Origin: an uncultured Gemmatimonadales bacterium
GTDB lineage: Bacteria > Gemmatimonadota > Gemmatimonadetes > Gemmatimonadales > GWC2-71-9
Assembly (NCBI GenBank): GCA_963825055.1
Contig: CAWGSK010000013.1
Span: forward strand, 224,001 to 288,000
Direction of reading: 5' to 3'
DNA length: 64,000 nt
Part shown: one piece after another, positions 26,070 to 60,802 of the stretch
Layout: every line of letters begins with the position of its first letter
How positions within the stretch are numbered: the first letter of the stretch is position 1
Translations under genes and position numbers: made by a program
Notes under the pieces: generated by a model
Told to the model about the DNA's origin: nothing
Seen by the model: only the letters and a program-made list of their open reading frames with translations
Database searches by the model: none

Positions 26070-26181
26070 GGGTATGGGGTATCGGGTAATCGGGTAATCG
26101 GGCCGGAGTTTAACGGTCGAGATGGATGAGAGTCCGAGCGTTATCCTTCCCGACTCCCGATTTCCGATTCCCGATTTCCGG
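26070..26181. repeat. Paired tandem-repeat locus A (GGGTA(A)TC-like left arm, TTCCCGA-like right arm)
   Basis: gggtatg gggtatc gggtaatc gggtaatc after the purK stop; ttcccga ctcccga tttccga ttcccga tttccgg at about 26148-26181. Confidence 0.8.
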
Positions 26182-27409
26182 CCGCCGCCTGCTCCTCCAC
26201 GAGTTCCCTGACCCCGTCCACCAGCCGCTCAACCTCCTCATCGTTCGTATAGCACGCGCATCCCGCCCGGACCACACCATCCTCACCGACACCCAGCCGC
26301 TCGATGACGGTAAGGGCATAGAAGTCGCCGTGGGAAACGTACACACCCCTCCTGGCAAGGCCGCGGGCGATCGACGGCGGGCTGAGCGTCTTCGACGTGA
26401 AGGAGACCGTGGGCGTGCGCGCGGCGTCCAGGCCCGGACCATGGCAGGTAATACCGTCAATCCCCGACAGGCCGCTCCACATCTTCCCGAACAGCCGCTT
26501 CGCCTGCTCATGGAGACGGCCGTACGAATCGGCCAGGCGATCGCGCCGGCTGGAACCGGACCCGAGCGACGCGAGGAAGTCGACGGCGGCCGCCGCGCCC
26601 ACGATACCCTCGTGGTTCTGGGTGCCCGTCTCCATCCGCTCCGGGGCGGTATCGGGAGCCGGCAGGAGCTTCGGGACATCCAGGCTCTCCAGCAGCTCAT
26701 GCCGCCCGAACAGCACTCCGATGTGCGGGCCATAGAACTTGTACGGCGAGCAGGCGAGGAAGTCGCACCCGATCTCCTCGACATCCACCAGCACGTGCGG
26801 CGCGTAATGGACGGCGTCCACGAAGGTCAGGATCCCCGCCTCGTGCGCCTGCCCACAGATCGCCCGGACATCCGTGATGGTGCCGAGGGCGTTCGAGGCC
26901 GCGCCGATGGCCAGCAGGCTTGCACGCTCCTCCAGGGCCGCCTGCAGGTCCTCCTGATCCAGCATCCCGGTTTCGGGGTTCATCCGCACCCGCCTGATAC
27001 GAACCCCGCGCTCCCGCGCGAGCGCGTGCCATGGAGCCACGTTCGCGTGATGGTCCAGCTCGGTCACGATGACCGTATCCTCCGGCCCCCACCCCCGGCC
27101 CAGGGCCCGGGCCAGGTGGAACGTCAGCGTGGTCATGTTCGCCCCGAACGCAATTTCGTTCGGCGCCGCGTTCAGGAACTCCGCCATGGTCTTCCGCGCC
27201 GACCCGAGCAGGGCATCGGTCTCGATGCTGGTCGGGTAGAGCCAGTGGGTATTGGCGTTGTGGTGGAAGAGATAGCGGGTGATGGCGTCGCCCACTTCAC
27301 GAGGCACCTGCGTCCCCCCGGGACCGTCGAAATAGGCGACCGGGTAGTGTTCGTGGCGACGCTCAAGGGCCGGGAACCGCTCACGAAGCGTGCTGACGTC
27401 GAGGGTCAT
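26141..27409 (-). CDS. Cysteine desulfurase-like class V aminotransferase
   Basis: YFDGPGGTQVP, ELDHHANVAPW, VDAVHYAPH, CSPYKFYGPH, METGT. Confidence 0.9.
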   Translation of the reverse strand: MTLDVSTLRERFPALERRHEHYPVAYFDGPGGTQVPREVGDAITRYLFHHNANTHWLYPTSIETDALLGSARKTMAEFLNAAPNEIAFGANMTTLTFHLARALGRGWGPEDTVIVTELDHHANVAPWHALARERGVRIRRVRMNPETGMLDQEDLQAALEERASLLAIGAASNALGTITDVRAICGQAHEAGILTFVDAVHYAPHVLVDVEEIGCDFLACSPYKFYGPHIGVLFGRHELLESLDVPKLLPAPDTAPERMETGTQNHEGIVGAAAAVDFLASLGSGSSRRDRLADSYGRLHEQAKRLFGKMWSGLSGIDGITCHGPGLDAARTPTVSFTSKTLSPPSIARGLARRGVYVSHGDFYALTVIERLGVGEDGVVRAGCACYTNDEEVERLVDGVRELVEEQAAAGNRESEIGSREG

Positions 27410-27459
27410 ACCGGAATTAAGCACCGCCGGCACCGGTCGGTAACCCCCGCCATAAGTCC

Positions 27460-27489
27460 TTGCCAAGCAATGGGGTAAGCGCCTATCTT
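27460..27489 (+). promoter_or_regulatory. sigma70-type promoter of ssrA
   Basis: TTGCCA-18-TATCTT, 8 nt before the mature tmRNA 5' end. Confidence 0.6.
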
Positions 27490-27497
27490 ACGGGCAC

Positions 27498-27858
27498 GGG
27501 GGCGACTGGCTTCGACGGGTTCGTTGAAGGCATCGCTGCGTGCCCAGGTCCAGGTTCCTGGTTAAACCGTCTGGAACGCTTTAATTGCCAACTCTGAACT
27601 GGCACTGGCCGCGTAAGCTGAGCTAAGCTCGCTTCACGCGCCTTCGTTGACCGGAGCCCGCCTGGGGCGCCGCCAACGAATCGAAAATCCGGGCTGGTGA
27701 GCCGCGATACCTCGACGCGGTAAACGAGATCTCAGAGGTTGGTCTGCCGGCAGGTCGGTTCGTCACCGGCCGGTGGATGAAGCAGAAAGATGAACCTACG
27801 CACGTAGATGCGGTCCCGGATGCATACTCGGACCAGGGTTCGATTCCCTGCGCCTCCA
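27498..27858 (+). ncRNA. ssrA: tmRNA; tag peptide (A)ANSELALAA at 27587-27616; CCA not fully encoded
   Basis: 5' GGGGGCGACTGGCTTCGAC, 3' GGTTCGATTCCCTGCGCCTCCA T-arm/acceptor with a G3.U pair; tag ORF ends LALAA-TAA. Confidence 0.96.
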
Positions 27859-27874
27859 CTGAACCTCAAAAAGC

Positions 27875-28029
27875 GTGAACGGTAAACGGTGAACGGTGAA
27901 CGGGCGTACCCGTGACCGCTCACCGTTGTCTTATGTACCTCCGGCTGCCATCGACCCACGCCCGCCTTCCCGGTGCCAGACCCATCCCGTTCACCGCTCA
28001 CCGTTTACCGTTCACCGTCTACCGTTCAC
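27875..28029. repeat. Paired heptamer locus B (GTGAACG x4 / CGTTCAC x6, inverted)
   Basis: Left arm 27875-27902, right arm 27988-28029; the GGDEF gene stop lies inside the last unit. Confidence 0.9.
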
Positions 28030-31340: not shown

Positions 31341-32393
31341 GTGAAGCGCAACCTGTCCATGGTGCTGGCCACATCCTTCGTGATCCTGGGAGTGGTCGCC
31401 TTCCCTCCGCTCTACTTTCTCCACACGATGAGCCGCCCCCGCATGGTGGCCACCAAGCTCGATCCCAACTGGCTCTATGCCATGGGACTGCCCGCCGTCA
31501 GCCTCGAAGTGGAGAAGGACCCGGTCGTCCGTTCCCTCCGCGGGTCGATTTTCCACGTGACCAGGGGTGACATCTTCCGGTTCCTGCAGAGCCACTTCAC
31601 ACCCGCGGACGTCAGCTTCAAAGCGGTCGAGATCCACCAGTCGGTGCTCGACGGACTCCGGCAGTATCCCGGCAGCCTGAGCTTCTACGTCTCCGTAAAC
31701 GAGGAGAAGAAGGTGGTACTGCCTGACGTCCATGGCTTCTTCCAGCGGAAGCTGGATGCCCGGGAGGAATGCGGGGTAGGAGGATTCCTGGACATCGCCT
31801 GGATGGGGCTCAAGAGCCTCTTCGGCGAGAAGCAGTCCGCGATCGAGACCCTGCAGGACCTGCCCCACTGCGATCCCTCGGGCGCCGTGGAGAACAAAAT
31901 CCTGAATGCGGTGGACGAGGGCGTCGCCGAGTTCCGGCGGGTAAGTCGAGACTCGATCAGGGTCACGCCCTCCATCAGCATGAAGGCGAGCCGACGTATC
32001 CGGAGCGCACTCGCGGCGGGCCGATGGTGGGGCCTGCTTGTCGCGGTCATGCTCGGCATCCTGACCGCGCTCGCCTGGCTCAACCGCGAGGACCGGCACC
32101 TCCTCTTCCGGCGCACCGGGACCACGCTGCTGCTCACGGGCCTGGTACTGCTCGTCGTCTCCTTCCCGTGCATCTGGATGATCCGCGACCTCGACATCCC
32201 CGGCATGATCCTGTGGGTGGAACATCCACCCATCTCGGAGGGCACTGGCCAATGGCTCGGCCTGGTCTTCTACGTGGTCAAGAGCGCCGCGCAGGCAACC
32301 AATCGAGACCTGGTCCTGGTGGGAGGGGTACTGGCGGTGGCGGGGGGAGGGCTGGTGGGGGTGGGGTGGCGGAAGGCAGTGACTAGTGACTAG
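31341..32393 (+). CDS. Hypothetical membrane protein (N-terminal TM, soluble domain, about three C-terminal TMs)
   Basis: 350-aa ORF filling the gap between dusB and guaA; no motif recognised; stop supplied by the GTGACTA repeat. Confidence 0.7.
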   Translation: MKRNLSMVLATSFVILGVVAFPPLYFLHTMSRPRMVATKLDPNWLYAMGLPAVSLEVEKDPVVRSLRGSIFHVTRGDIFRFLQSHFTPADVSFKAVEIHQSVLDGLRQYPGSLSFYVSVNEEKKVVLPDVHGFFQRKLDAREECGVGGFLDIAWMGLKSLFGEKQSAIETLQDLPHCDPSGAVENKILNAVDEGVAEFRRVSRDSIRVTPSISMKASRRIRSALAAGRWWGLLVAVMLGILTALAWLNREDRHLLFRRTGTTLLLTGLVLLVVSFPCIWMIRDLDIPGMILWVEHPPISEGTGQWLGLVFYVVKSAAQATNRDLVLVGGVLAVAGGGLVGVGWRKAVTSD

Positions 32394-32518
32394 TGACTAG
32401 TGACTAGTGACTAGTGGCAAGTGGCAAGTGGCAAGTGGCAAGTGGCAAGTGGCAAGTGGCAAGTCGAGGGTGACGAGTCTGCTTCGCCACTCACTACTCA
32501 CCACTCGCCACTCGCCGT
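32379..32518. repeat. Paired heptamer locus C (GTGACTA x5 + GTGGCAA x7 / TCRCCAC-like x5)
   Basis: Perfect tandem units 32379-32462; degenerate inverted arm 32484-32518 next to the guaA stop. Confidence 0.95.
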
Positions 32519-35401: not shown

Positions 35402-36849
35402 CAATAGGCCCGCGCCCAGACGGCCTCGGCCTGGCTGGGCCGCCCGCACCACATGCAGCTATCGGGGGGAGTGGCACTCCGGAACTCCTCGTCCGGGAGC
35501 ACTCGCACGGTGGCTTTCGTCTTCTCCTTGATCTCCGCCTCGCATCCGGCGTCACCGCACCAGCCGCCGTAGGCGAACCCGCCACCGGACTCGATGTAGT
35601 CGACGAACTCATCTTTTGAGAGCCCGCGGCGGCTGTTCGCCTCGCGGCGTTCCCGGGCCGCACTCAGCAGATTCGCCTGCATGCGCTCGACCTCGCCGGC
35701 CATCCGTTCCCCGACCCCCTCGAGCGGGACGGACTCCTTGTCCCCACCGGTCCGGCGCGCGAGCATCGCCGTGCCGGCGGCCAGGTCACGTGGCCCCAGC
35801 TCGAGCCGGAAGGGAGCGCCGCGCGCCTCCCATTCCCAGTACTTGGCACCGGGCGTCATCCCCTCGCGGTCGTCCACGTGGGCACGAAGTCCCGCCGCCT
35901 TGAGTTCGCCCCGCAGCTTCTCGGCCGCCTCCAGCACCGACATGCGGTCGGCATCCTTGCGGTAGATGGGCACCACCACCACCTGGTACTGCGCCAGCTT
36001 CGGAGGACAGATCAGGCCCTTGTCGTCGCTGTGGGTCATCACCAGCGCGCCCACCAGCCGGGTCGACACGCCCCACGACGTGCTCCAGACGTGATCGATG
36101 CCCCCCTCGGCAGTCTGGAACGTGGTATCGAACGCCTTCGCGAAGTTCTGGCCCAGGAAGTGGCTCGTGCCGGCCTGGAGCGCGCGGTTGTCCTGCATGA
36201 GCGCCTCACAGGCATAGGTGCGGACCGCCCCGGCAAACCGCTCGCTGTCCGTTTTCAGGCCCGTCAGTACCGGCATCGCCATCCACTCTTCCATGAACGT
36301 GCGGTACACCCCGAGCATCCGGCGGGTCTCCTCCTCGGCCCCGACGGCATCCGCGTGGGCCGTGTGGCCCTCCTGCCAGAGGAACTCCGTCGTGCGGAGA
36401 AAGAGCCGGGTCCGCATCTCCCAGCGGACCACGTTGGCCCACTGGTTCAGCAGTACCGGGAGGTCGCGGTAGCTCTGGATCCACTTCGCCAGCATCGCGT
36501 AGATGATCGTCTCGGAGGTGGGGCGCACGACCAGCGGCTCCTCCAGTTCCCTGCCACCACCGTGCGTGACCACCGCGGTTTCGGGCGCGAATCCCTCGAC
36601 GTGCTGGGCTTCCTTCGCGAGAAAGGACTGCGGGATGAACAGGGGGAAGTAGGCGTTCTGGTGTCCGGTCTCCTTGAACATTGCGTCCAGCGCGCCCTGC
36701 ATCTGCTCCCAGATGGCGTACCCGTTCGGACGGATGACCATGCAGCCGCGCACCGGACTGTAGTCCGCGAGCTCGGCGCGCATGATGACATCGTTATACC
36801 AGGCGCTGAAGTCCTCTGCCCGGGGTGTGATTGCCTTGTCGTCAGCCAT
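35401..36849 (-). CDS. proS: Proline--tRNA ligase (archaeal/eukaryote-like type)
   Basis: [37 protein letters not shown]-terminal AY. Confidence 0.96.
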
Positions 36850-36854
36850 GGAAA

Positions 36855-36936
36855 GTCGAAGGTCGAAGGTCGAAGGTCGAACGCTCTCTGCCCCTGCCTG
36901 CTGCCTGCTGCCTTATTGCCCGCTGCCTACTGCCCG
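36855..36936. repeat. Paired heptamer locus D (GTCGAAG x4 / CTGCCTG-like x6; arms not complementary)
   Basis: Fills most of the hisS-proS spacer; hisS stop inside a CTGCCTA unit. Confidence 0.9.
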
Positions 36937-38210
36937 TTGCGTACAACTCGCTCCGTCATCCTGCTCATGATCTCGTCGGCCGGGACGGCGTGCTGCTCGT
37001 TGGCCTGGAGGTCCTTGAGCATCACGCGGCCGGCGGCCCGGTCGTCGGGGCCGATCACGATCGCGTGGCGTGCGTTGCGGGCATCGGCGAGCTTCAGCTG
37101 CTTGCCGATGTTCTGGCCGCCAAGGGTGTACTCGACGCGGATACCCGCGTCCCGCAGCTCGTGTGCGAGGGCAAGGACGCTGGGAAGGTCCTCACCGGTT
37201 ACAGCTGCCACGAAGACGTCACAGCCCGCGGCCGCCTCCGGCAACAGGCCCCGGTCCTTCAGCAGTTCGCCGAGCACCACGTCGCCGAAGCCGAAGCCGA
37301 CAGCGGGAAGGTCCACCCCGCCCAGCGCCCCGGCGAGGCGGTCATAGCGCCCGCCGCCGCAGATGGCCCGGAGTTCGCCCTTCGCGTCGAAGAGTTCGAA
37401 GACGGTGCCGGTGTAGTACGCCAGGCCACGGACGATTTTCGGATCCACCAGAAGGAACTCGCCAAGCCCCATCGCCCGGAGCGCCTCGAGCACCTTCGTG
37501 AATCGCTGGCCCGCCTCGCTCGCCATGGCACCGTCAGGGATGGCGCCCCCGACGAATGCTCTCACCGCGTCACGCTGCGGCTGTTCCAGGCCGGCGTCGG
37601 CCAGCACGGCAAGGGAATGGGCCTCGTCGACGCGTTCCCACTTGTCGATGGCGTGGTAGGCAGCATCCAGTCCATCGCCCGAAATGCCCGCCTCGGAGAG
37701 CATCTGGTTCAGCAGGGCGCGGTCGAACAGCCGAACCCGGAAATCCTCCGGCCCGAACCCGAAGGCCCGCATCACGTCGATCGCCAGCGCGATGACCTCG
37801 GCGTCCGCCAGGGGCCCGGGCTCGCCGATCAGGTCGCAGTTCAGCTGGAAGTGCTCGCGGAGACGGCCGCGCTGCTGGCGTTCGTAGCGGAAGAGCTGCG
37901 GAATGCTGAACCAGCGGATGGGCTTCTTGAGCCCGTTGGCGCGCGCCGCCACCATCCGCGCCAGGGTCGGGGTCATCTCGGGCCGGAGGGCCACCTCCCG
38001 GTTTCCCTTGTCGGTGAACGCGTAGAGCTGCCCCACGATCTCCTCGCCGCTTTTCGCCGTGTACAGTTCCAGCGGCTCCAGCGGCGGACCGTCGTACTCC
38101 TCAAAACCGTAGCACCCGGCCACCCGGCGCCAGGTCTCGAAGATGTGCGCGCGAAGCGCGAAGTCGTCGGGGTAGAAATCGCGAAAGCCCGGCAGGGCAC
38201 GGGGTTGCAT
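36927..38210 (-). CDS. hisS: Histidine--tRNA ligase
   Basis: LRPEMTP, FRYERQQRGRLREHFQ, VRGLAYYTG, GGGRYD. Confidence 0.96.
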   Translation of the reverse strand: MQPRALPGFRDFYPDDFALRAHIFETWRRVAGCYGFEEYDGPPLEPLELYTAKSGEEIVGQLYAFTDKGNREVALRPEMTPTLARMVAARANGLKKPIRWFSIPQLFRYERQQRGRLREHFQLNCDLIGEPGPLADAEVIALAIDVMRAFGFGPEDFRVRLFDRALLNQMLSEAGISGDGLDAAYHAIDKWERVDEAHSLAVLADAGLEQPQRDAVRAFVGGAIPDGAMASEAGQRFTKVLEALRAMGLGEFLLVDPKIVRGLAYYTGTVFELFDAKGELRAICGGGRYDRLAGALGGVDLPAVGFGFGDVVLGELLKDRGLLPEAAAGCDVFVAAVTGEDLPSVLALAHELRDAGIRVEYTLGGQNIGKQLKLADARNARHAIVIGPDDRAAGRVMLKDLQANEQHAVPADEIMSRMTERVVRNGQ

Positions 38211-38216
38211 GGGCAG

Positions 38217-38245
38217 AAGATAGCGGGAGCCCCCGGCCCAACCAA
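38217..38245 (-). promoter_or_regulatory. sigma70-type promoter of hisS (probably leaderless)
   Basis: TTGGTT-17-TATCTT on the minus strand, ending 6 nt before the ATG. Confidence 0.5.
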
Positions 38246-38260
38246 CCCGGGGAGCAGCAC

Positions 38261-38321
38261 AAGGTGAAGGGTCCCGTCCCGACGCCCTTCAGCTTTTCAC
38301 CCTTCACCTTTCACCCTGTCA
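38261..38321. repeat. Paired heptamer locus E (short AAGGTGAAGG / CCTTCAC-like x4)
   Basis: cttcagc ttttcac ccttcac ctttcac cctgtca ending in the folC stop; reduced inverted left arm. Confidence 0.75.
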
Positions 38322-39551
38322 GATCCCGCCCCATAGCTCCGCCATCACGTCACCCACCGTGTGAAAGCTCCCGGTCACCAGAATCGTCCCCGCGCCATCC
38401 TGGACCTCCCGGAGGGCGGCGTGGAAGTCCGGCTGGAGGGTCCACGCCGCCCGGGCAGGCGGGCGGTCGGTCCGGACCAGCCATTCGGCCAGCCACCCCA
38501 GGTCCCAGCCTCGACCGGCCGCGGTCGGGGCGCAGGTCAATATTCCCCGGTCGATCACGCGGTCCAGCTCGACCAGCATCCCGGGCCATTCCTTGTCCCC
38601 CAGGATGGAAACCAGCGCGTGGACGGGCCGGGGAACCGGGTCGGCCTCGAGGGCGTGGACCAGGGCCGAGACTCCGTCGGGGTTGTGGGCAACGTCGAAC
38701 AGCCACCGGCCCCGCCGGTCCAGGCGGCCGGCGACGGTGGTCCGACCGAAGGCCTGCTCTACCACCTCGAGCGATGGGCGCCAGCGCGGCGGCAGCGCCA
38801 TCAGCGCCCCGTAGGCGACGGCGGCATTCCGTCGCTGGTGTGGCCCGGCGAGCGCGAGCGGACCGGGCCAGAGGTACCCGGCCGGGAGCACCCGGATATC
38901 GGCCTCACCGCCACGCTCCCGGCAGGCGCGACGGGCCGCCTCCCGGAGTTCCTCCACCAGGGCGGGTTCGGTCTCCCCGATCACGAACGGCACACCGGGC
39001 TTGGCAATCCCGGCCTTCTCGCGGGCAATCTCGGGCAGTGTCTCACCCAGATACTTGTGGTGGTCCCGGGCGATCCGGGTCACCACGCTCACTTCGGGGG
39101 TGATGATGTTCGTGCTGTCCAGCCGGCCGCCGAGCCCGACCTCCACCACCGCGATCTCGACACCCCGGGCCGCAAAATCGGCGAATGCGATGGCAGTGGA
39201 GGCCTCGAAGAATGTGGCCTCCCGCTCACGGATCAGCGGCTCGAGCCGGCTGGTCCACATCGCCACGGCATCCTCGGTGATCGGCTGGCCGTCCACCATG
39301 ATCCGCTCGCGGAATGACACCAGGTGCGGCGAGGTGTAGAGCCCGGTGCGCCAGCCCGCCGTGCGGAGCGATTCCGCCATGAGCGCGGCCACGCTCCCCT
39401 TCCCGTTAGTCCCCGCAACATGAATGGTGGGATACACCAGGTGTGGCGACCCGAGATCCTCCACCAGCGCGGCGGTCGTCTCCAGCCCGAACCTGATGGT
39501 GGTGGTCCGGGGGAACAGAAAGTCGAGCGCCGACTGATAGGTCCTCACCAC
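38319..39551 (-). CDS. folC: Folylpolyglutamate/dihydrofolate synthase
   Basis: HVAGTNGKGS, YTSPHL..ERI, EVGLGGRLDSTN, DVAHNPDG. Confidence 0.95.
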   Translation of the reverse strand: MVRTYQSALDFLFPRTTTIRFGLETTAALVEDLGSPHLVYPTIHVAGTNGKGSVAALMAESLRTAGWRTGLYTSPHLVSFRERIMVDGQPITEDAVAMWTSRLEPLIREREATFFEASTAIAFADFAARGVEIAVVEVGLGGRLDSTNIITPEVSVVTRIARDHHKYLGETLPEIAREKAGIAKPGVPFVIGETEPALVEELREAARRACRERGGEADIRVLPAGYLWPGPLALAGPHQRRNAAVAYGALMALPPRWRPSLEVVEQAFGRTTVAGRLDRRGRWLFDVAHNPDGVSALVHALEADPVPRPVHALVSILGDKEWPGMLVELDRVIDRGILTCAPTAAGRGWDLGWLAEWLVRTDRPPARAAWTLQPDFHAALREVQDGAGTILVTGSFHTVGDVMAELWGGI

Positions 39552-39586
39552 GGGGCACCCGCCTGTCCGCAGGCTGCCTCAGACCT

Positions 39587-39682
39587 CACCACGAAGTGCA
39601 CGAAGGACACAAAGGAAAAGCCTGGATGAATGTTCCCTTCATGACGACCCATCACTTCGTGCCCTTCGTGGCCTTTGTGGTG
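39587..39682. repeat. Paired nonamer locus F (CACGAAGNN x3 / CTTCGTGNN x3, inverted)
   Basis: caccacgaagtgcacgaaggacacaaag ... cttcgtgcccttcgtggcctttgtggtg. Confidence 0.88.
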
Positions 39683-39702
39683 GGGCTGTTGCCATGGTCC
39701 AG

Positions 39703-39731
39703 AAAAAACGCCCCATGAACCATCAGGGCGT
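39703..39731 (-). terminator. Probable intrinsic terminator after accD
   Basis: Minus strand ACGCCC-TGATGGTTCATG-GGGCGT followed by a T run. Confidence 0.6.
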
Positions 39732-39755
39732 CTGAAACACGTTTCCATCACCCGC

Positions 39756-40625
39756 TCAGGCGTACTGCAGTTCGGGCACCTCCGGCTGGCGCTGCCCCTG
39801 CATGTGCCGCAGCAGGCGGGCGGTCGTCTCGCGCAGGCTGGCGCGGGGAACGACGTCGTCAATCTGGCCGTGGTCCAGCAGGAACTCCGCGGTCTGGAAC
39901 CCCGGCGGCAGGTCCTGCCCGATGGTCTGCTTGATGACCCGCTGGCCCGCGAACCCGATTACGGCCCCCGGCTCGGCGAGAATGACGTCACCCTGCATGG
40001 CGAAGGAGGCGGACACGCCGCCCGTCGTCGGATTGGTCAGGATGGAGATATACGGGATGGCGAGGCGCTTCAACTGGGCGATCATGGCGCTGGTCTTGGC
40101 CAGCTGCATGAGGGAGAGCACACCCTCCTGCATCCGGGCCCCGCCGGACGTGGAGACGATGACAAGGGGCAGCCGCTTCTCGGCTGAACGCCGGGCGAGC
40201 CGCGCGATCTTCTCGCCCACAACGGAGCCCATCGACCCGCCCATGAAGGCGAAGTTCATCACTCCCAGATTGTACGGAATCCCGTCCACCCGCCCCGAAC
40301 CGGTGAAGATCGCGTCCTGGTCACCCGACTTCCGGTACGCCGCCTCCAGCCGCTCGGGATAGTTCTCGAACGTCAGCGGGTCGCTCGAACGGAGGTTGGT
40401 GAACATCTCCTTCCATGACCCGGCGTCAGTCAGCAGCTCCACGTAGCCCGCCGCCGTGAACCGCCGGTGGTCCCCGCACTCCGGGCAGACGTTCAGGGCC
40501 TTCTCGAACCGCTCCCTGATATCGACATGCCCGCAGGCCTCGCACTTCTCCCACGCATCGACCGGGATTTCCAGTCGTTCACGCTGCGAGACGCGGGGTT
40601 TCCGCTCTTTCTTGAACCACGCCAT
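39756..40625 (-). CDS. accD: Acetyl-CoA carboxylase carboxyltransferase beta subunit
   Basis: WEKCEAC..CPEC zinc finger, FMGGSMGSVVGE, SGGARMQEG, PTTGGVSAS; start 40625 or 40634. Confidence 0.96.
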   Translation of the reverse strand: MAWFKKERKPRVSQRERLEIPVDAWEKCEACGHVDIRERFEKALNVCPECGDHRRFTAAGYVELLTDAGSWKEMFTNLRSSDPLTFENYPERLEAAYRKSGDQDAIFTGSGRVDGIPYNLGVMNFAFMGGSMGSVVGEKIARLARRSAEKRLPLVIVSTSGGARMQEGVLSLMQLAKTSAMIAQLKRLAIPYISILTNPTTGGVSASFAMQGDVILAEPGAVIGFAGQRVIKQTIGQDLPPGFQTAEFLLDHGQIDDVVPRASLRETTARLLRHMQGQRQPEVPELQYA

Positions 40626-46461: not shown

Positions 46462-46489
46462 CAGGAAGTCAGGGCGTCCATGGGGTGAT

Positions 46490-46518
46490 AACCTAACGTC
46501 TGGGAAGAGGGCCTACAA
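46490..46518 (-). promoter_or_regulatory. sigma70-type promoter of mreB
   Basis: TTGTAG-17-TAGGTT on the minus strand. Confidence 0.45.
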
Positions 46519-46549
46519 GCACGTGCAGGACGATTGCGCGGCCTGGCCG

Positions 46550-46996: not shown

Positions 46997-48110
46997 CCTT
47001 GAGAACCGACTCCACGTCCACCAGCGGCAGCCCGAAGGCCTCGGCCACGCCGGGGTAGACCACCTTGCCCTCGACTACGTTGAGGCCGAGGCGGAGGGCC
47101 TTGTCGGCCCCGGAGGCCCGCTTCCAGCCGTCCCGCGCGAGACGAATGCCCCAGGGGAGGGTGGCGTTGGTCAGGGCAAGCGTGGAGGTGCGGGGCACGC
47201 CGCCAGGCATGTTGGCCACCGCGTAGTGCAGGATGCCGTCCACAAAGTACGTCGGGTTCTCGTGGGTAGTCGGCTTGATGGTCTCGACGCAGCCGCCCTG
47301 GTCCACCGCCACGTCCACGATGACCGTGCCGGGTTTCATGGTCTTGAGGTCCTCGCGCTTGACGAGGTGCGGCGCACGGGCCCCGGGAAGGAGTACCGCC
47401 CCGACCACGAGGTCGGCCTTGGCGATGGCCTCGAGGATGTTGTGCCGGTTGGAGTAGACGGTATCCACGTTGGCGGGGAGCACGTCGTCCAGGTACCGCA
47501 GCCGGTCGAGCGAGATGTCGAGAATGGTCACGTGCGCGCCCAGCCCCGCGGCCATCTTGGCGGCATTGATGCCGACCACGCCGCCACCGATGATGGCGAC
47601 CTCGCCCGGGGCCACGCCCGGCACGCCACCCAGCAGGATGCCGCTGCCCCCGAACACCTTCTCCAGGTACTTGGCGCCTTCCTGCACCGCCATCCGTCCG
47701 GCCACCTCGCTCATCGGCGTGAGCAGCGGCAGCTCGCCATTGGGAAGCTGCACCGTCTCATACGCGACCGCGATGGCCCCGGATTCGATCACCGCGCGGG
47801 TGAGCTTCTCGTCGGCGGCAAAGTGGAAGTAGGTGTAGATCAGTTGCCCTGCCCGCATCCGCGGCCACTCCGGCGCGATGGGCTCCTTCACCTTCATGAT
47901 CATGTCGGCCTTCGCCCAGACTTCATCGGCGGTCGGCAGGATCTTCCCGCCCACGGCCGCGTACGCCTCGTCGGGGAAGCCGCTGCCATCGCCGGCACCC
48001 TGCTCGATACAGACCGTGTGACCGGCCCCGGTGAGGGCCTCACACCCCGCGGGGACGAGGGCAACGCGGTTCTCGTTGGTCTTGATTTCCTTCGGGACGC
48101 CGATGATCAT
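46989..48110 (-). CDS. ald: Alanine dehydrogenase
   Basis: [39 protein letters not shown]. Confidence 0.96.
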
Positions 48111-48144
48111 GGCTCGCTCGGAAAGTAAATGGTCAATTCGTCGG

Positions 48145-49410
48145 TCAGGCGACGGCCCGCTCGGGGCCCAGCCGCATGATGGTCTGCCGGCCGGGAGCGA
48201 AGAACTCCGCCGACACGGCACGCACCTGTTCCACTGTCACTGCGTCGATCGCCCCGCGCAGCTCGTCGAGGCTCCGGTACCGGTCCTCGTGCAGGGCCAT
48301 CGCCGCAAGCCGGCTCATCCGGCTGCCCGGGCTTTCCAGCGCCAGCAGCACCTGTCCCTTCAACTGCTGCTTCCCCTCGTCCAGTTCGGCCTCTCCCAGC
48401 GCCTCGTCCGCCACGCGGGCATACTCCGCGAGGATGGCCTCGACCGCCTGGTCCGCCGTGGCCGGCTGGGTACCAACGTACACACCCGCAACGCCGGTCG
48501 CCCGGTGCAGGTTCTGGTAGGCGTAGATGGCGTAGGCGAGACCGAGTTCCTCACGGATCCGCTGGAACAGCCGGCTCGACATGCCGCCACCGAAGATATT
48601 CACGAGGATGGCGAGGGCAAACCGCCGTTCATCGCGATAGGGGAAGGTGTCGGTGGCAAGGACAATGTGGGTCTGGGCAGTGTCGCGCGGTTCGCGGTGA
48701 GCCCCGCCCCGCACCGCGGGCGCGGCGGCAACGGCAGGCACCGGCGCCCGGGACGCGCCGTCCGCAAACCAGCCCTCCAGCTCCAGCAGGCCCAGCAGCG
48801 CGTCATGGTCCAGGCTGCCGGCCGCCGCGATGACGCAATTGCCGGGGTAGTAGTTGTCCCGGTGGACGCTCCGGAGGTGTTCCGCCGTCAACCCGCCGAC
48901 GGTCTCCCTGGTACCGAGGATGGCGTGGCCGTAGCCGTGGGCGGGCCACATCTGCCGGGCCAGCAGGTCGAAGACCAGGTCGTCCGGGGTGTCATCCACC
49001 ATGTTGATCTCCTCCAGGACCACGTTCCGCTCGAGCTGGAGGTCGGCATCCTGGAGGAGGGGACGGCGCACGAGGTCGGTGAGGACATCCACCGCGCGGG
49101 GGAGGTCCTCGTCGACCACATGGGCCTGGAAGTTGGTGTAGTCGCGGCCGGTGTAGGCGTCGAGGCTGCCGCCCCGCACCTCGAGTTCCATCGCAATCTC
49201 GCGCGCGCTGCGGCGCTCGCTGCCCTTGAACACCATGTGCTCGAGCAGGTGGGACACGCCCATGATCGCGGGCGGTTCATGCGCGCTGGCGGTCCGGACC
49301 CAGACGCCGGCGGCCACCGAGCGAATGCCCGGCAGCCGTTCGGTCAGGATGGTGAGGCCGTTCGGGGCCACCGAACGGCGCACCCCGGTGTCGAGCTGCT
49401 CCGTATCCAT
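48145..49410 (-). CDS. M16-family zinc peptidase
   Basis: [10 protein letters not shown] inverzincin motif, [20 protein letters not shown]; downstream of pnp. Confidence 0.93.
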
Positions 49411-49417
49411 CGGCCGG

Positions 49418-51499
49418 CTACTCCTTGGGAAGGAGCGCCTTCCGGGAAAGCTTCATGCGGCCGCGATCGTCGACCTCGAGCAGCTTCACCTGGATTGTGT
49501 CGCCCTTCTTGACCACGTCTTCGGTCTTCTCGACCCTGGTGTGGGCGAGCTCCGAGATGTGCAGCAGCCCTTCCACGCCCGGAAGGATCTCGACGAACGC
49601 CCCGAAGGCCGTCGTGCTCTTGACCGGGCCCTCGTAGATCCTGCCCACCTCGGGCTCCGCCACCAGTGCCGCGACCATCTCGCGGGCACGCTGGCCGGCC
49701 TCGCCGCCCACGGCGGCGATGGTCACGAGCCCCGTGTCGTCAACGTTGACCTTGGCACCCGTCTGGTCCTGGATCCCGCGGATCGTCTTGCCCTTCGGGC
49801 CGATGATGTCGCCGATCCGGTCGGGCTTGATCTGGATGGTGATGATCCGGGGCGCGTAGGGCGACAGTTCCGGCCGCGCCTCGGCCAGTTCCTTCTTCAT
49901 GATCTTGAGGATGTGGAGCCGGCCCTTGCGTGCCTTCTCCAGCGCTTCCTCCATGATCGCGAGGTCGAGGCCCTGGATCTTGATGTCCATCTGGATGGAC
50001 GTGATCCCGCCCTCGGTCCCGGCGACCTTGAAGTCCATGTCACCCAGGTGATCCTCGCTGCCCAGGATGTCGGTCAGCACGGCGACCTTGTCGCCTTCCT
50101 TGATGAGGCCCATCGCCACGCCGGCGCAGTGCGCCTTCATCGGCACGCCCGCGTCCATCAGGGCGAGCGAGCCGCCGCAGACGGTGGCCATGGAGCTGGA
50201 CCCGTTGGACTCGAGCACCTCGCTCACCACGCGGAGCGTGTACGGGAAGCCCTCGTAGTCCGGCAGGAGCGGCTGCAATGCCCGCTCGGCCAGCGCGCCA
50301 TGCCCGATCTCCCGGCGGCTGGTGCCGCGGATGGGCCGCACCTCGCCGGTGCTGTACGGCGGGAAGTTGTAGTGCAGCATGAACGACTTGGTCGTCTCGC
50401 CGGCCACGTCGATGTTGTCGATCCGCTGCTCGTCATCCGACGTGCCCAGCGTGACCGCCACCAGGGCCTGGGTCTCGCCCCGCGTGAACAGCGCCGAACC
50501 GTGGGCCCGGGGAAGCAGGCCGGTCTCGATCGTGATCGGCCGGACCGTGTCCAGGTCCCGCCCGTCCACCCGCTCCCCCTGCTCCAGTACCTGGTTCCGC
50601 ATGGTCCGATACTCGATCGCATCCAGCTCCCCGTAGACATCCTTCATGTTCTCCGGGTAGAGCTCCTGCAGCTTGCCGATGACCTCGTCCTTCGCCGCCT
50701 TGAGCGCCGCCGCGCGCCCGGCCTTGTCCTTGGCATTGATGGACTTCGTGACCAGGTCCTCGGCCATGTCGCGCACCTTGGCGACCACGGCCTGGTCGGG
50801 CTCGGCGCGGTTCCACTCAACCTTCGCCTTGGCGCACTTCTTGATCAGCTTGTTCTCGAGGGTCACCAGCTCCTTGATGCCCTTCTGGGCCACCTTCAGC
50901 GCCGCCACCAGCTCCGTCTCGGAGATCTCGAGGGCGCCGCCCTCGACCATCATGATCGAGTCGGCCTGGCCCGCCACCGTGATGTCCACGGTGCTGAACT
51001 CGAGCTGCTGGAAGGTGGGATTCAGGATCCAGTTGCCATCAACCCGGCCCACCCGGACGGCCGCCACGGGGCCGTTCCACGGGATCTGGCTCAGGGAGAG
51101 CGCGAGCGAGGCGGCGACCACGCCGATCACGTCGGCGTCGTTCTCCTGGTCTGCCGACAGCACCGTCACGAAGATCTGGATCTCGTTCTTGAAGCCCTTC
51201 GGGAAGAGCGGACGCATCGTCCGGTCGATCACCCGGGCCGCAAGGATCTCGTGATCCGAGGGGCGGCCCTCCCGCTTGATGAAGCCACCCGGGATCCGCC
51301 CGGCGGCGTACGTCTTCTCGCGGTACTCGACCGTGAGCGGGAAGAATGGCAGCGTTGATTCCCTGGGGGACATCGTCACCGCGGCCAGCACGACCGTGTC
51401 GCCGAACTGGAGGAGCACCGACCCGGCAGCCTGCTTGGCGAGGCGCCCGGTCTCGAGGCTCAGCTTGCGACCGGCAAATTCTGTGTCAATCCGTTCCAC
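49418..51499 (-). CDS. pnp: Polyribonucleotide nucleotidyltransferase
   Basis: FFPLTVEY, GRIPGGF, RREIGHG, ESNGSSSMA, GDMDFKVAGT, KH and S1 domains. Confidence 0.98.
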   Translation of the reverse strand: MERIDTEFAGRKLSLETGRLAKQAAGSVLLQFGDTVVLAAVTMSPRESTLPFFPLTVEYREKTYAAGRIPGGFIKREGRPSDHEILAARVIDRTMRPLFPKGFKNEIQIFVTVLSADQENDADVIGVVAASLALSLSQIPWNGPVAAVRVGRVDGNWILNPTFQQLEFSTVDITVAGQADSIMMVEGGALEISETELVAALKVAQKGIKELVTLENKLIKKCAKAKVEWNRAEPDQAVVAKVRDMAEDLVTKSINAKDKAGRAAALKAAKDEVIGKLQELYPENMKDVYGELDAIEYRTMRNQVLEQGERVDGRDLDTVRPITIETGLLPRAHGSALFTRGETQALVAVTLGTSDDEQRIDNIDVAGETTKSFMLHYNFPPYSTGEVRPIRGTSRREIGHGALAERALQPLLPDYEGFPYTLRVVSEVLESNGSSSMATVCGGSLALMDAGVPMKAHCAGVAMGLIKEGDKVAVLTDILGSEDHLGDMDFKVAGTEGGITSIQMDIKIQGLDLAIMEEALEKARKGRLHILKIMKKELAEARPELSPYAPRIITIQIKPDRIGDIIGPKGKTIRGIQDQTGAKVNVDDTGLVTIAAVGGEAGQRAREMVAALVAEPEVGRIYEGPVKSTTAFGAFVEILPGVEGLLHISELAHTRVEKTEDVVKKGDTIQVKLLEVDDRGRMKLSRKALLPKE

Positions 51500-51535
51500 G
51501 TTGTTGGACCTTTGCGTCTGGTGAGCACACCAATG

Positions 51536-51572
51536 CGAAACGGGCGCCCCTGTGCTCTGCTGGGGCGCCCGG
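51536..51572 (-). terminator. Stem-loop between rpsO and pnp (terminator or processing site)
   Basis: CGGGCGCCCC / GGGGCGCCCG 10-bp stem followed by TTTCG on the minus strand. Confidence 0.55.
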
Positions 51573-51588
51573 CCTGGCTCGCGCGAGG

Positions 51589-51849
51589 TTAGTGACGGAG
51601 ACCGAGTTGATCGATCAGCTCACGGTACGTCTCGAGGTCGCTCTTGCGGAGGTAGGTCAGCAGCCGACGCCGCTGGCCCACCATCTTGAGCAGACCCCGA
51701 CGCCCGTGGTGATCCTTGGGGTGGGTCCGGAAATGATCCGTGAGGTAGTTGATGCGTTCCGTGAGGAGCGCGACCTGGACGCGGGCCGATCCCGTGTCAC
51801 CCTCGGTGCGGGCATGCTTCTCGATGACCGCCTGCTTGTCAAACCCCAT
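51589..51849 (-). CDS. rpsO: 30S ribosomal protein S15
   Basis: [36 protein letters not shown]. Confidence 0.98.
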
Positions 51850-51909
51850 CTCGCCACTTCCTCATCTGTTTACGCGAGCAGTGCTTAAGCGATTCTGTGA
51901 TAGCAGGGG

Positions 51910-51939
51910 AATGTAGCGGGAAACTGGGGGGTGGGGCAA
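51910..51939 (-). promoter_or_regulatory. sigma70-type promoter of rpsO-pnp
   Basis: TTGCCC-18-TACATT on the minus strand. Confidence 0.55.
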
Positions 51940-51961
51940 GGGGGATGGGGGGCGAGAGAGG

Positions 51962-52045
51962 GTGGCGAGTGGCAAGTGGCAAGTGGCAAGTGGCAAGTGG
52001 CAAGTGGCAAGTGGCAAATGGGGAGTGGGGAGTGGGGAGTGGCCA
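51962..52045 (+). repeat. Locus H left arm: 12 heptamers (GTGGCGA, GTGGCAA x7, RTGGGGA x3, GTGGCCA)
   Basis: Direct reading of the tandem array. Confidence 0.95.
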
Positions 52046-52129
52046 ACGCAAGGGGAAGGACGGGATGGATGGGTCCAGACCTCAGGAATTCGGTACGCTT
52101 CCCAGGCGCCCAGGGATGAACTTCCCATC

Positions 52130-52501
52130 ATGGAAGATCAGTCGAGGACAGGCTCCTACCAGGGCCTTGAGGCCTGGCGGGAAGCCATGGCCCTGGCGGA
52201 GTCTGTCTGGCAGGAAACCCGAACATTTCCCGCAGAAGAGCGCTACGTCCTGAGCCAGCAGCTCCGCCGGGCGGCCTCCTCGATTCCGGCCAATATCGCC
52301 GAGGGGTTCGGCCGGCGCAGCGGTGGAGACTACCGGCGTTTCCTGGCCATCGCCAACGGTTCGCTGAAGGAGGCGGAAACCCAGATTCTACTGGCGGCAC
52401 GCGTCGGTGTATTGCCGCCAGAAGTTGCGGATCGGATGGTCAAGAGAACGAACCGAATCGGACGACTGTTGCTTGGATTGTGTCGATCTCTGAAGCGATA
52501 G
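52130..52501 (+). CDS. Four helix bundle protein (23S rRNA IVS-protein / Avd-like family)
   Basis: SYQGLEAWREAM, FPAEERYVLSQQLRRAASSIPANIAEGFGR, FLAIANGSLKEAETQ; antisense to both neighbours. Confidence 0.92.
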   Translation: MEDQSRTGSYQGLEAWREAMALAESVWQETRTFPAEERYVLSQQLRRAASSIPANIAEGFGRRSGGDYRRFLAIANGSLKEAETQILLAARVGVLPPEVADRMVKRTNRIGRLLLGLCRSLKR

Positions 52502-52517
52502 GAACCCCTACCGCCGC

Positions 52518-52588
52518 TGGCCACTTCCCATTGGCCCACTTCCCACTCGCCATTTACCACTTACCACTTGCCACTTACCACTCGCCTA
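52518..52588 (-). repeat. Locus H right arm: about 10 units (TTACCAC/TTGCCAC/TTCCCAC), inverted relative to the left arm
   Basis: Last unit TCGCCTA contains the rseP stop codon. Confidence 0.92.
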
Positions 52589-53957
52589 TATCCCCACCAA
52601 CCTCAAAATGTCGTTCGAAAACACAAACACCATCAGCAGCACGATCATCACCAGCCCGACCGCCGTCAGGCGCTCCCGCACCTTGAGGCTGAGCGGCTTG
52701 CGCTGGACGGCCTCCGCCACCAGGAAGAGGAACTGACCGCCGTCCAGCACGGGGATAGGCAGGAGGTTCAGCACCGCGAGGTTCACCGAGATCAGCGCCA
52801 TGAAGGCGATGAAGACATCCCAGCCGAGCTGGGCACTCTGGCCGGCCATCTGCGCGATCGCGATCGGGCCGCCCAGCTGGCGGCCGCTCACCCGCCGGGT
52901 GGCGATCCCGCGCACGGTGCGCACGATGAGCGTGGACGCCGCGATGGTCTGATCGGTGCCTGCCGCGAGCGCGCCGCCCACGGAAAGGGCCCGGTGTTCG
53001 ATCCCCCGGTCCACGCCAATGCCGATCTGGCCCCGCTGTGTCTCCGAGCCGTCGGCCGCGGTGTCCGTGACCGCCTCCGGCACGAGGGTCAGGGTGGCGT
53101 GCCCGGAGGCCCGGCCGATCTCGAGCGACAGGGACTCGCCCGGATGGGGGCGGATCTTGCCGACCATGTCGTACCACTGGATCACCGGCTCACCGTTGAC
53201 GGCGAGGACGGTGTCGCCCCGCGCGAGGCCGGCCTTCGCCGCGGGGGAGCCGGGCTGGACCAGCCCGACCACCGCCGGCTGCCAGGGCTGCACCGCCTGC
53301 CCGAGCGCCAGCCGATCCTCCAGCGCATCGACGTGCACCGGAATGGTGACATCGGGCTTGCCGGCCCGCTGCACCACCACTTCGCGTCCCGGGTGCCGAC
53401 TGGAGCTCGGCATTCACGTCGTTCCAGTTCTCCACCGGCCGGCCGTTGATCGCCACGATGCTGTCGCCCGGCTGGAGCGCCGCGACCGGTTGCACCGACT
53501 CGGGGAGTCCCGCGGTGATCACCTCGCCCACCCGCGTGGTCGGCAGGATCTCCGCGCCCTTGATGAGCGCAATACTGGTGTAGGCCACCCACGCGAACAC
53601 GAGGTTCATGGTGACACCGGCCAGGATGACGATCATCCGCACCCAGACCGGCTTCGCCTCGAAGACCCGGTCCGGCGGCACCTGGGCGTTGTCCGCCCCG
53701 CCCTCCAGCACGCTGTTCGAGGTGTCCTCCTCCCGGCTCGCCATCTTCACGTACCCGCCCAGCGGAAGCCAGGAGACGGAGTACTCCGTCTCGCCCCGCT
53801 TCCGGGTGAGCCAGCGGATCGGGGCGCCCAGGCCCAGGGAGAACCGGTGCACCCAGATACCGGCCGCCTTGGCGGCCATGAAGTGCCCCGCCTCGTGCAC
53901 GAAGATGAGGACGCCCAGGACGACAATCAGGGCGGCCAGGCTGATCAGAAAGGTCAC
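52586..53957 (-). CDS. rseP: RIP metalloprotease RseP; apparent +1 frameshift near 53388-53393
   Basis: HEAGH and LPLGGYVKM in ORF 53190-53957; second PDZ and NLLPIPVLDGG in ORF 52586-53413. Confidence 0.9.
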
Positions 53958-59585: not shown

Positions 59586-59658
59586 TCGTCCATCGCCTTC
59601 ACCTGTCCGGCCCGAACCCCGAAGGGCACCCCGGGCCGCCATCCGGCGATGTGTGAGT
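59586..59658 (-). ncRNA. rpsB leader (t44/S2 autoregulatory element)
   Basis: CACACATCGCC...CCGGGGTGCCCTTCGGGGTTCGG...GGCGATGG in the rpsB 5' UTR resembles the E. coli t44 core as I recall it. Confidence 0.7.
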
Positions 59659-59699
59659 TGTCCTGCATCGGCAGGGGCGGGACTGCCCGCCCGCGCCGG

Positions 59700-60101
59700 T
59701 TACCGCTTGCTGAACTGGAACCGCTTCCGGGCGCCCGGACGTCCGGGCTTCTTCCGTTCCACGGCCCGCGGGTCACGCGTGAGGAGGCCGGCCGCCCGGA
59801 GTTTCGTCCGGTGCGTCTCGTCCGCCTGCACCAGCGCCCGGGCGATGCCGAGCCGGAGCGCGCCGGCCTGGCCGGTCATGCCGCCGCCATCCACATGCGC
59901 CTTCACGTCGAACGCGCCGAGCGTGTCGGTCGCGCCGAAGGACTGCTGGATGTGCTGCACCAGGGAGGGACGGGGGAAATAGTCCCCCAGGGTCCGCCCG
60001 TTGATGTCCCACTTGCCGGTGCCCGGCGTCAGGTAGACGCGCGCGACACTCGTCTTCCGACGGCCCACCGCGTTCCAGCGAAACTCGTTGCCAGCGCTCA
60101 T
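59700..60101 (-). CDS. rpsI: 30S ribosomal protein S9
   Basis: GRRKTSVARV, GGGMTGQAGA, RDPRAVERKK, QFSKR. Confidence 0.98.
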   Translation of the reverse strand: MSAGNEFRWNAVGRRKTSVARVYLTPGTGKWDINGRTLGDYFPRPSLVQHIQQSFGATDTLGAFDVKAHVDGGGMTGQAGALRLGIARALVQADETHRTKLRAAGLLTRDPRAVERKKPGRPGARKRFQFSKR

Positions 60102-60550
60102 GCGTTCACCTTCCGGGGTGCGATCTCGTACGGGGTCGGCTGCTGCGCCTCATGCGGGTGCTGCGCGCCGGCGTAGACCTTGAGCTTGCCGCGCAGGTGC
60201 TGCCGCGCCAGGGACGTCTTGGGGAGCATGCCGAACACGGCGCGGCGGATCACCCGGTCCGGGTGCTTCTCGAAGACCTCGCGGATCGGCACATGCTTCT
60301 CATGGCCCATGTAGCCGGTGTGCTTGAAGTGGGTCTTCTGCTCCATCTTCCGGCCGGTCAGCTTCACCTGTTCCGCGTTGATCACCACCACGAAGTCGCC
60401 CCCGTCCATATGGGGCGTAAAGGTCGGCTTGTGCTTGCCGCGAATGAGCTGCGCGACGACGCTCGCCAGACGGCCGAGCGGGACGCCCGCGGCGTCCACG
60501 ACATGCCAGTCGTGCGAAATGTCAGCCGGCTTGGCGGAATAGGTCTTCAT
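60098..60550 (-). CDS. rplM: 50S ribosomal protein L13
   Basis: WHVVDA, LGRLAS, GKHKPTFTPH, GMLPK, HPHEAQQP. Confidence 0.98.
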   Translation of the reverse strand: MKTYSAKPADISHDWHVVDAAGVPLGRLASVVAQLIRGKHKPTFTPHMDGGDFVVVINAEQVKLTGRKMEQKTHFKHTGYMGHEKHVPIREVFEKHPDRVIRRAVFGMLPKTSLARQHLRGKLKVYAGAQHPHEAQQPTPYEIAPRKVNA

Positions 60551-60610
60551 TGCTGCACGTCGCCCTGGGTTGAACTTGGGACTCCAAAATGAGTTATGGC
60601 ACAGACTCGC

Positions 60611-60640
60611 AAAATAGTCCGAGGCCGAGGGGTGGGTCAA
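60611..60640 (-). promoter_or_regulatory. sigma70-type promoter of rplM-rpsI
   Basis: TTGACC-18-TATTTT on the minus strand. Confidence 0.6.
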
Positions 60641-60651
60641 GGGACAGGACG

Positions 60652-60802
60652 GGCGGTCGGGCGGTCGGGCGGTCAGGCGGTCAGGCGGTCAGGCGGTCAG
60701 GCGGGCGGGCGGTCGTCGCCGGAGGCGACGGGATGCCGAGCAGCGGCTTCAGCCGCGTGGACAGAGAGGAACGACTCAACCCCGATACCCCATCCCCGAC
60801 TA
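60652..60802. repeat. Repeat locus I (GGCGGTC[A/G] octamer x8 / short CCCCGA-like arm at the accB stop)
   Basis: Octamers at 60652-60715; accccgataccccatccccga-cta at 60779-60802. Confidence 0.85.

Follow-up and report, generated by a model that had tools for sequence, protein, structure and literature searches.

Several described systems resemble parts of the element considered here. The intervening sequence (IVS) within Coxiella's 23S rRNA gene carries heptamers before the S23p gene, within terminal inverted repeats, and is excised by RNase III (PMC4990558). Intergenic 7-mer arrays of the unit GGGAATC in Xanthomonas and GGGGAYT in Nostoc include convergent pairs, 70 of them in X. campestris (PMC4692102), and the short tandemly repeated repetitive sequences (STRR) and long simple-sequence repeats (LSSR) of cyanobacteria represent a heptamer-array class cited in both PMC4692102 and PMC4679880. 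Repeat 15 of Rehm et al. in X. campestris is a GGGAATC array situated 6 nt past bccP, and it overlaps the XCC0516 start codon (PMC4692102 supplement); the main text names neither XCC0516 nor a four-helix protein. TAACTGA repeats in Beggiatoaceae are direct repeats before start codons, with one inverted case, and the text of PMC4679880 does not link them to a PF05635-type gene family. PF05635 proteins are structural homologues of Avd from diversity-generating retroelements (DGRs) (PMC10053308). Here we describe paired tandem-repeat arms, or brackets, that flank genes of the PF05635/TIGR02436 family, and many gene-less brackets of the same layout, starting from a 64,000-nucleotide stretch (the window; C13:224001-288000) of an uncultured Gemmatimonadales genome, a 3.53-Mb assembly (G000) of 68% GC that is 87% complete and 6% contaminated. 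On balance, we take the brackets to be the ends of a small, selfish, IVS-type gene cassette that resides outside rRNA genes, together with empty derivatives of that cassette.

The window holds one filled cassette. Its left arm (51960 to 52043, + strand) comprises about 12 copies of a purine-rich 7-mer, GTGGCAA/GTGGGGA, with a score of 108 in Tandem Repeats Finder (TRF), and its pyrimidine-rich right arm (52511 to 52585, + strand) of CCACTTR/CCACTCG units is flush with the rseP TAG at 52586 to 52588. Folded together, the two arms reach -112 kcal/mol, a long stem formed by terminal inverted repeats. The initial annotation had called the spacer a complete four-helix-bundle gene, and so it proved: the gene (52130 to 52501, + strand) has 123 codons, lies antisense to the rseP-rpsO operon, and matches TIGR02436 (E, 3e-33) and PF05635 (E, 4e-34). 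The best Protein Data Bank match of its product is 2GSC (E, 7e-27), the pentamer encoded by XCC0516, and an ESM Atlas search returned PF05635 clusters only. The G+C content at third codon positions (GC3) is 0.72, against a genome median of 0.86. A scan of positions 51800 to 52700 found no sigma-70 promoter and no terminator. A complex of four copies of the cargo protein was predicted with a score of 0.38, against 0.02 for the best control; 21 of 30 solved pairs and none of 23 single chains attain the mark set for such scores, and the runs share at least 90% of contacts with a pLDDT of at least 67. Since a similar pentamer has already been solved, the predicted complex indicates likeness only.

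All eight PF05635/TIGR02436 genes in the genome have a purine arm upstream and the inverse arm downstream, each with a different unit. The eight share 34 to 77% identity, their neighbors are all protein coding, and their GC3 values range from 0.67 to 0.77; the closest homologues of one of them come nearly all from Gemmatimonadota. The proposal that particular small genes would be enriched between arms was thus borne out, and it extends to a second family: one of the two GxxExxY genes (L119) lies between matched arms of three-copy 9-mers, a family seen empty at 39587 in the window, and the other (L120) is followed by a bracket of L119-type 9-mer arms. All 9 cargo genes at co-oriented junctions of this genome run antisense to the host operon; rough strand calls in the wider lineage gave both orientations (8 antisense against 3 sense, and 21 against 13), and in Mesorhizobium the cargo is in the sense direction. 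Beyond this genome, we collected 285 PF05635 loci with full flanks, which are the best 80 matches of three queries plus loci from the bacterial family and from Mesorhizobium and are not a random sample. At least one arm was present at 244 of them (6 after shuffling) and both arms at 181. Upstream arms were purine rich in 186 of 222 cases and downstream arms pyrimidine rich in 183 of 225, and in 147 of 189 filled loci the two arms were within 1 base of each other (7.0 expected). GxxExxY loci carried arms in 34 of 75 cases (1 after shuffling), a count that passes over short degenerate arms, seen in printed examples, that escape the detector; the periods were 8 to 10, save one of 5, and never 7. 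Long gaps between arms were inspected as a source of further cargo and set aside, as they contained genes of the host, a GIY-YIG unit that has its own palindromes, or, between unmatched arms, an ORF of unknown nature. A search of viral contigs, limited to close relatives, returned a single 17-residue match.

The arms are abundant and strictly polar across the genome. TRF found 381, 151, and 95 arrays of periods 7, 8, and 9, respectively, and at most 32 of any other period; intergenic arrays of these three periods numbered 313, 138, and 76, against none in three dinucleotide shuffles. Gene positions here and below come from our own hexamer gene caller (3,169 genes) and not from a curated annotation. 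A strict scan yielded 443 loci, with 183 purine-then-pyrimidine pairs and no pure reverse, and a word-based scan yielded 506 loci, with 261 purine-first pairs, 240 single arms, and one reversed pair, which is the end of a filled cassette beside another bracket. After removal of exact duplicated regions, 254 of the 261 pairs were left. (Several regions occur twice at 97 to 100% identity, on contigs C6/C12, C21/C12, C14/C8, C29/C5, and others, in keeping with the 6% contamination.) The fixed polarity noticed in the window therefore holds genome-wide, and we attribute it to inheritance from a symmetric element. That no bracket lies in the first 26 kb of the window is correct but ordinary, as 28 of 118 26-kb windows across the genome are free of pairs.

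Such arrays could in principle be nothing more than long simple-sequence repeats that polymerase slippage has produced, next to which the genes are bystanders. Copy number clearly does vary by slippage, and the excess of 7-nt periods in bacteria has been ascribed to slippage, as summarized in PMC4679880. We nevertheless consider this account very improbable, given the 261:1 polarity, the matched inverted arms around 147 of 189 genes, units in common with resident cassettes, and an array load tied to gene count; slippage is left only as a source of length variation. The initial annotation's view that these are not ordinary microsatellites is upheld.

Arms lie close to stop codons. Outer arm ends have a median distance of 4 nt to stops (217 ends) and 51 nt to starts (139 ends), and in 142 of 178 pairs an arm comes to within 25 nt of a stop. 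Arms occur at 118 of 351 convergent, 216 of 2,256 co-oriented, and 60 of 354 divergent junctions. The initial annotation took this proximity for targeting of stop codons, which overstates the case: arm-free co-oriented and convergent junctions have a median length of only 9 to 18 nt, so that proximity requires no targeting and may be passive, and many units carry stops of their own. A unit that contains a stop overlaps the end of the gene in 100 of 196 cases and shares the register of the host stop in 76 of 121 (31.1 expected); for stop-less units the register is shared in 9 of 91 (8.3 expected), and 74 of 137 begin 0 to 10 nt past the stop. TAG is the stop of 232 of 517 genes at junctions with arms, compared with 262 of 1,102 at arm-free junctions with gaps of at least 20 nt, and the TAG excess also appears at stop-less units (74/137). 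Brackets would be flush with stops mostly because this is the sole harmless position, and arms with TAG or TGA in the unit would often replace the host stop. The initial annotation is right that no core gene is broken, but ends can be rewritten: 30 gene ends have at least 14 nt within an arm, and at 26147 to 26180 in the window a right arm is translated as the last codons of a cysteine-desulfurase-like gene. The word TANNNT, tried as an internal promoter, was rejected because start-facing and stop-facing arms both carry it at their inner edge (28 of 206 and 32 of 289, respectively), as an element-internal word would. At C12:389564-389870, what appears by eye to be a 5S rRNA gene is bracketed on both sides.

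The gene-less brackets share the units and the distribution of the cassettes. Among 7-mer arms, 281 of 435 differ by no more than 1 base from a unit that borders a resident gene (84.5 expected from shuffled units), as do 175 of 193 8-mer arms (12.0 expected), giving 456 of 628 together (96.5 expected). The common 9-mers resemble one-base expansions of the 8-mer, and cassettes L004 and L005 have them in their right arms. Array load also follows gene number across 120 genomes of the bacterial family (Spearman, 0.51), with medians of 0, 6, 14, and 33 array matches for 0, 1 to 2, 3 to 5, and at least 6 PF05635 genes; at least 20 matches were found in 1 of the 20 genomes without such a gene and in 45 of the 100 with one. 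These figures use two degenerate array patterns, the kin are not independent, and two of the 120 genomes (G014 and G083), which enter into no other result, are marked as unpublished. Non-homologous brackets (e.g., C15:155894, C17:57938, and C13:99650) have halves in common: an arm, with a short tail on its inner side that ends in a TAYCTTC-like word, is combined with one partner arm or another. Brackets seem to collect other small elements. A second repeat family of GTCATY...ATGAC palindromes with a GIY-YIG gene is nested in some (C3:91060-91720 and about 13 spacers), and a RAYT-like gene with its own palindromes adjoins an 8-mer arm at C3:21452.

Comparison of orthologous junctions shows that gene and arms form one heritable unit that is gained, lost, and swapped, in either orientation. 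Between rseP and rpsO, about 640 nt are added in this genome, starting at the base after the TAG. Of 29 relatives, 8 keep rseP directly before rpsO at a distance of about 95 to 185 nt with no array, and the insert is missing from all 8, as judged from spacer length. Three genomes from another family (L030, L032, and L037) have, by eye, empty brackets of other units at the rseP stop. Between hisS and proS, 3 of the 29 relatives have two-armed brackets of other units and about 3 a lone arm, likewise read by eye, and in most the genes overlap or nearly touch. Rows for rodA-accD, in which stops were misplaced, were left out of this comparison. Because the source genome is without a relative of the same genus, the close comparisons were made in Mesorhizobium. 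Seventy nuoC-nuoD alleles there comprised 26 filled ones with four arm types, 38 with a gap of 0 to 9 nt, and 6 with other small inserts, proportions that are not frequencies, as 40 of these alleles were chosen because of a particular gene ending. In filled alleles the insert begins at the nuoC stop, and the native spacer is mostly retained ahead of nuoD. A tree of the flanks, whose bootstrap had not settled, places filled alleles as sisters of gap alleles and one cassette type as sister of another (L152/L153, 100/100; L209/L218, 95/98). Before a gene that we take, from our own reading of its sequence, to be rppH-like, 1 of 30 Mesorhizobium genomes (G137) has an empty bracket of its own cassette unit; this new allele supplies a new stop and replaces the native spacer without enclosing it. 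Filled, empty, and absent states therefore all occur at orthologous junctions, and with the polarity and cargo results they agree with the first proposal of filled and empty forms of one dispersed element. Arm-less small ORFs were also seen at atpD-atpC (L470 and L494) and at nuoC-nuoD (L158, L165, L183, L212, L215, and L219), which makes these Mesorhizobium junctions general insertion hotspots. Among contigs of 4 DNA runs aligned to positions 35600 to 53500, one joint in run X1, leading from 52007 to 52552, would skip the cargo. Its depth value recurs at a second joint within the right arm, so that it may derive from another locus of like units, and X1 may be the source sample; the joint was not used.

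A number of observations weigh against a cassette with empty derivatives. No filled allele was found in relatives at the four window junctions checked that are empty here, and none of the 70 nuoC-nuoD alleles is an empty bracket. At atpD-atpC, an empty bracket is present in 25 of 30 Mesorhizobium genomes, with units that differ between species, and its persistence is a hint of some role for the host. About 50 arms are ATCGGGT/ATCGGGG, a unit that none of the resident genes has. Arms match in 75 of 178 empty pairs (23.9 expected), fewer than the 147 of 189 in filled loci, which indicates that the empty brackets have been reshuffled. Their spacers are mostly unique, with no match to the linkers of resident cassettes (150 spacers gave one cluster of 13, formed by a nested other repeat, and 14 pairs, many of them duplicated contig regions), so that descent from cassettes is inferred and not traced. 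The cassette has no transposase gene, and no match to reverse transcriptase (PF00078) was found in it or in the 87%-complete genome. Two Y1_Tnp genes and the best GIY-YIG gene have their own, different palindromes, although one Y1_Tnp palindrome unit is nested near an 8-mer arm. Target-site duplications of at least 6 nt were found at 8 loci, against 9.4 expected from shuffled pairs, with fuzzy element ends, and none was evident at the Mesorhizobium junctions. Finally, among 87 independent protein pairs no residue column predicts a change of unit (best corrected P, 0.27), in a test of modest power and crude unit phasing, so the case for self-recognition goes no further than co-inheritance. Raw mutual-information peaks for such a code were diffuse and confounded by kinship and were discarded. 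Unit likeness does track protein identity, with a mean difference of 2.1 bases at 65 to 80% identity and 4.0 below 45%, as expected from co-inheritance.

Part of this pattern could arise if arms were written de novo, a junction break being extended at both ends with the purine-strand unit in a telomerase-like manner, under the guidance of the cassette protein together with an unknown polymerase, and then rejoined. Polarity would then be fixed, arms could be hybrid or composite, spacers would be unique, and target duplication would be lacking, all of which is observed. We think it improbable, however, since no reverse transcriptase match was found, matched arms are three times commoner than independent choice predicts (75 versus 23.9), the arm-plus-inner-tail halves common to non-homologous loci are what copying would leave, and the new empty Mesorhizobium allele replaces its native spacer rather than enclosing it.

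We return to the preferred reading, a selfish cassette and its derivatives. Its layout is a purine-strand tandem arm, a four-helix-bundle gene, and an inverted arm, with a second lineage that carries a GxxExxY nuclease gene between units of 8 to 10 nt. The roughly 250 gene-less brackets would descend from cassettes by loss of cargo between the inverted arms, and some may move without a gene. Slippage would set the copy number of the arms, and recombination between arms would make the hybrid and composite brackets. Spread among relatives would proceed by allele exchange through conserved flanks. The encoded oligomer most likely binds its own tandem units, and binding together with host repair or recombination, or cutting in the case of GxxExxY, could spread the cassette. 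As each gene comes packaged with its own candidate binding sites, with eight gene-unit pairs in one genome, cognate and noncognate binding can be compared directly.

The nine loci of the window, in which the left arm is purine rich, the right arm pyrimidine rich, and the period 7, 8, or 9, were all confirmed. Eight of them touch or nearly touch a stop, the exception being 39587, about 70 nt from the accD stop. Their arms had been described as unrelated; they are usually mutual reverse complements. Five loci (26070, 27875, 32379, 38261, and 39587) fold far better than mononucleotide shuffles (z, -3.5 to -7.9), and 36855, 40734, and 60652 do not, because their arms come from different families. 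At two loci one arm is only a degenerate remnant, namely the right one at 60652 and the left one at 38261. Apart from the cassette, the loci are empty brackets without an assigned strand. The bracket at 26069 to 26180 has matched 7-mer arms, TCGGGTA and TTCCCGA, between the convergent purK and cysteine-desulfurase-like genes (fold z, -5.9). That at 27875 to 28029, with matched GTGAACG and CCGTTCA arms (z, -7.3), lies between the 3' end of a transfer-messenger RNA (tmRNA), which it follows after 13 nt, and the stop of a GGDEF gene, and its unit is that of resident cassette L008; the tmRNA is the only Rfam match in the window. At 32378 to 32517 (z, -7.9), with units of cassettes L002 and L003, a composite left arm of AGTGACT then AGTGGCA faces a right arm of TCGCCAC/TCACTAC, and the bracket stops 2 nt short of the guaA stop; a 350-amino-acid ORF (31341 to 32393, + strand) with a strong coding score and no Pfam match has its stop supplied by the arm at 32378. 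The hisS-proS bracket at 36851 to 36944 has unmatched arms, GTCGAAG and CTGCCTR, with the hisS stop inside the right arm (z, 2.6), and the folC-hisS bracket at 38260 to 38322 has a short left remnant and a right arm of TTCACCC that overlaps the folC stop (z, -3.5). The GxxExxY-type bracket at 39586 to 39685 consists of three copies of the 9-mer CACGAAGnn and their exact inverse; its arm family also flanks the GxxExxY gene L119, and a similar bracket occurs at accD-folC in a relative (L577). The composite bracket at 40734 to 40929 combines GGACAGGGC, TCGGGAG, and GTCGAGAG with TCCCTAC, TCACCAC, and TCGCCAT (z, 0.1) and ends 4 nt before the stop of mrdA-rodA, where mrdA (PBP2) and rodA form a single 1,049-amino-acid open frame (40934 to 44083) with both domains complete, which may be a true fusion or reflect a lost stop. 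The bracket at 60647 to 60800 has a left arm of the 8-mer GGCGGTCR, the unit of cassettes L004 and L005, and a degenerate, mixed right arm abutting the accB stop (z, 0.6). Separately, rseP (52586 to 53957) is split into two overlapping frames near 53380 to 53420, each half matching Peptidase_M50 and PDZ, which may be an assembly error.

The alternative first raised alongside a dispersed element was a common 3'-end RNA signal. In its fullest form, the arms would be mRNA hairpins or binding arrays for a ring-shaped host protein, comparable to TRAP or Hfq, that acts in processing, stability, or termination, and the cassette gene would be an autoregulated factor. The 142 of 178 pairs near stops, the convergent enrichment (118/351 versus 216/2,256 co-oriented), and the long-lived atpD-atpC bracket would suit such a role, as would excision of the Coxiella IVS by RNase III (PMC4990558) and the report that Xanthomonas transcripts often begin or end at repeats (PMC4692102). 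Against it, three of the nine window loci (36855, 40734, and 60652) do not pair; the sense strand folds better in just 56 of 131 cases; 21 of 178 pairs lie between divergent genes; and the bracket is missing at the same junctions in most relatives. Nor was there an excess of G-U over A-C on the transcribed strand (54:59 in co-oriented empty brackets, 245:237 in filled cassettes, and 43:49 at atpD-atpC), a comparison weakened by register ambiguity in periodic arms. We therefore regard an RNA-level system as unlikely. With no G-U bias, reverse transcriptase match, target duplication, or code, the RNA signal is unsupported, and no mobilizing step is indicated for the cassette.

In the literature searched, of which subscription journals were largely uncovered, we found no paper linking the PF05635 family to dispersed arrays. 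Repetitive extragenic palindromes (REP and REPIN) with their RAYT genes, and MITEs, which are miniature transposable elements with inverted repeats, comprise a master gene flanked by its own repeats and many gene-less intergenic derivatives, an arrangement that the cassettes and brackets share. Unlike them, the cassette lacks a transposase and target duplication, its arms are tandem arrays rather than short palindromes, and the spacers are not uniform. The ORF-bearing 23S rRNA IVSs of Coxiella (S23p) and Leptospira share with the cassette the protein family, the terminal inverted repeats, the heptamers just before the start codon, and a sporadic, horizontally acquired distribution (PMC4990558). 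The cassette differs in that the window copy lies between rseP and rpsO and not in an rRNA gene, and in its eight copies of 34 to 77% identity, with different units, in either orientation, and about 250 gene-less brackets. The parallel with DGRs goes no further than protein homology to Avd: no reverse transcriptase match accompanies it, and no pair of template and variable repeats can be seen in the 640-nt insert, for which no dedicated search was run.

The empty brackets fit the description of paired heptamer arrays, a descriptive class with no known mechanism, and match the published Xanthomonas pairs. As here, the purine strand of the GGGAATC arrays lies just past or over stop codons; those arrays were described as having one unit per genome and were read as G-quadruplex or regulatory DNA (PMC4692102), whereas a dozen 7- to 9-nt unit families coexist in this genome and are tied to cargo genes. 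The Beggiatoaceae TAACTGA repeats are similar in having stops in all frames of the forward-strand unit, gene-end overlap, and suggested mobile carriage (PMC4679880). The parts have been published separately (PMC4990558 and PMC4692102). The present analysis adds a genome-wide count of empty brackets, ties them to resident genes, documents the three-state polymorphism, and gives negative results for RNA pairing and for a recognition code. More tentatively, PF05635 and GxxExxY may be master genes of undescribed, transposase-free mobile elements, each protein acting on its own unit and seeding hundreds of brackets; this would give one origin to the 7-nt excess of STRR, Xanthomonas, and Beggiatoa, to the ORF-bearing rRNA IVSs, and perhaps to DGR Avd. 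The cassettes and brackets rewrite the stop codons and C termini of core genes, and they make operon junctions accessible to further insertions. They also join two puzzles, the role of the widespread "23S IVS" four-helix-bundle protein and the hundreds of 7-nt arrays in many bacteria, and the gene-less leftovers of the cassette may explain this long-unexplained class of bacterial repeats.

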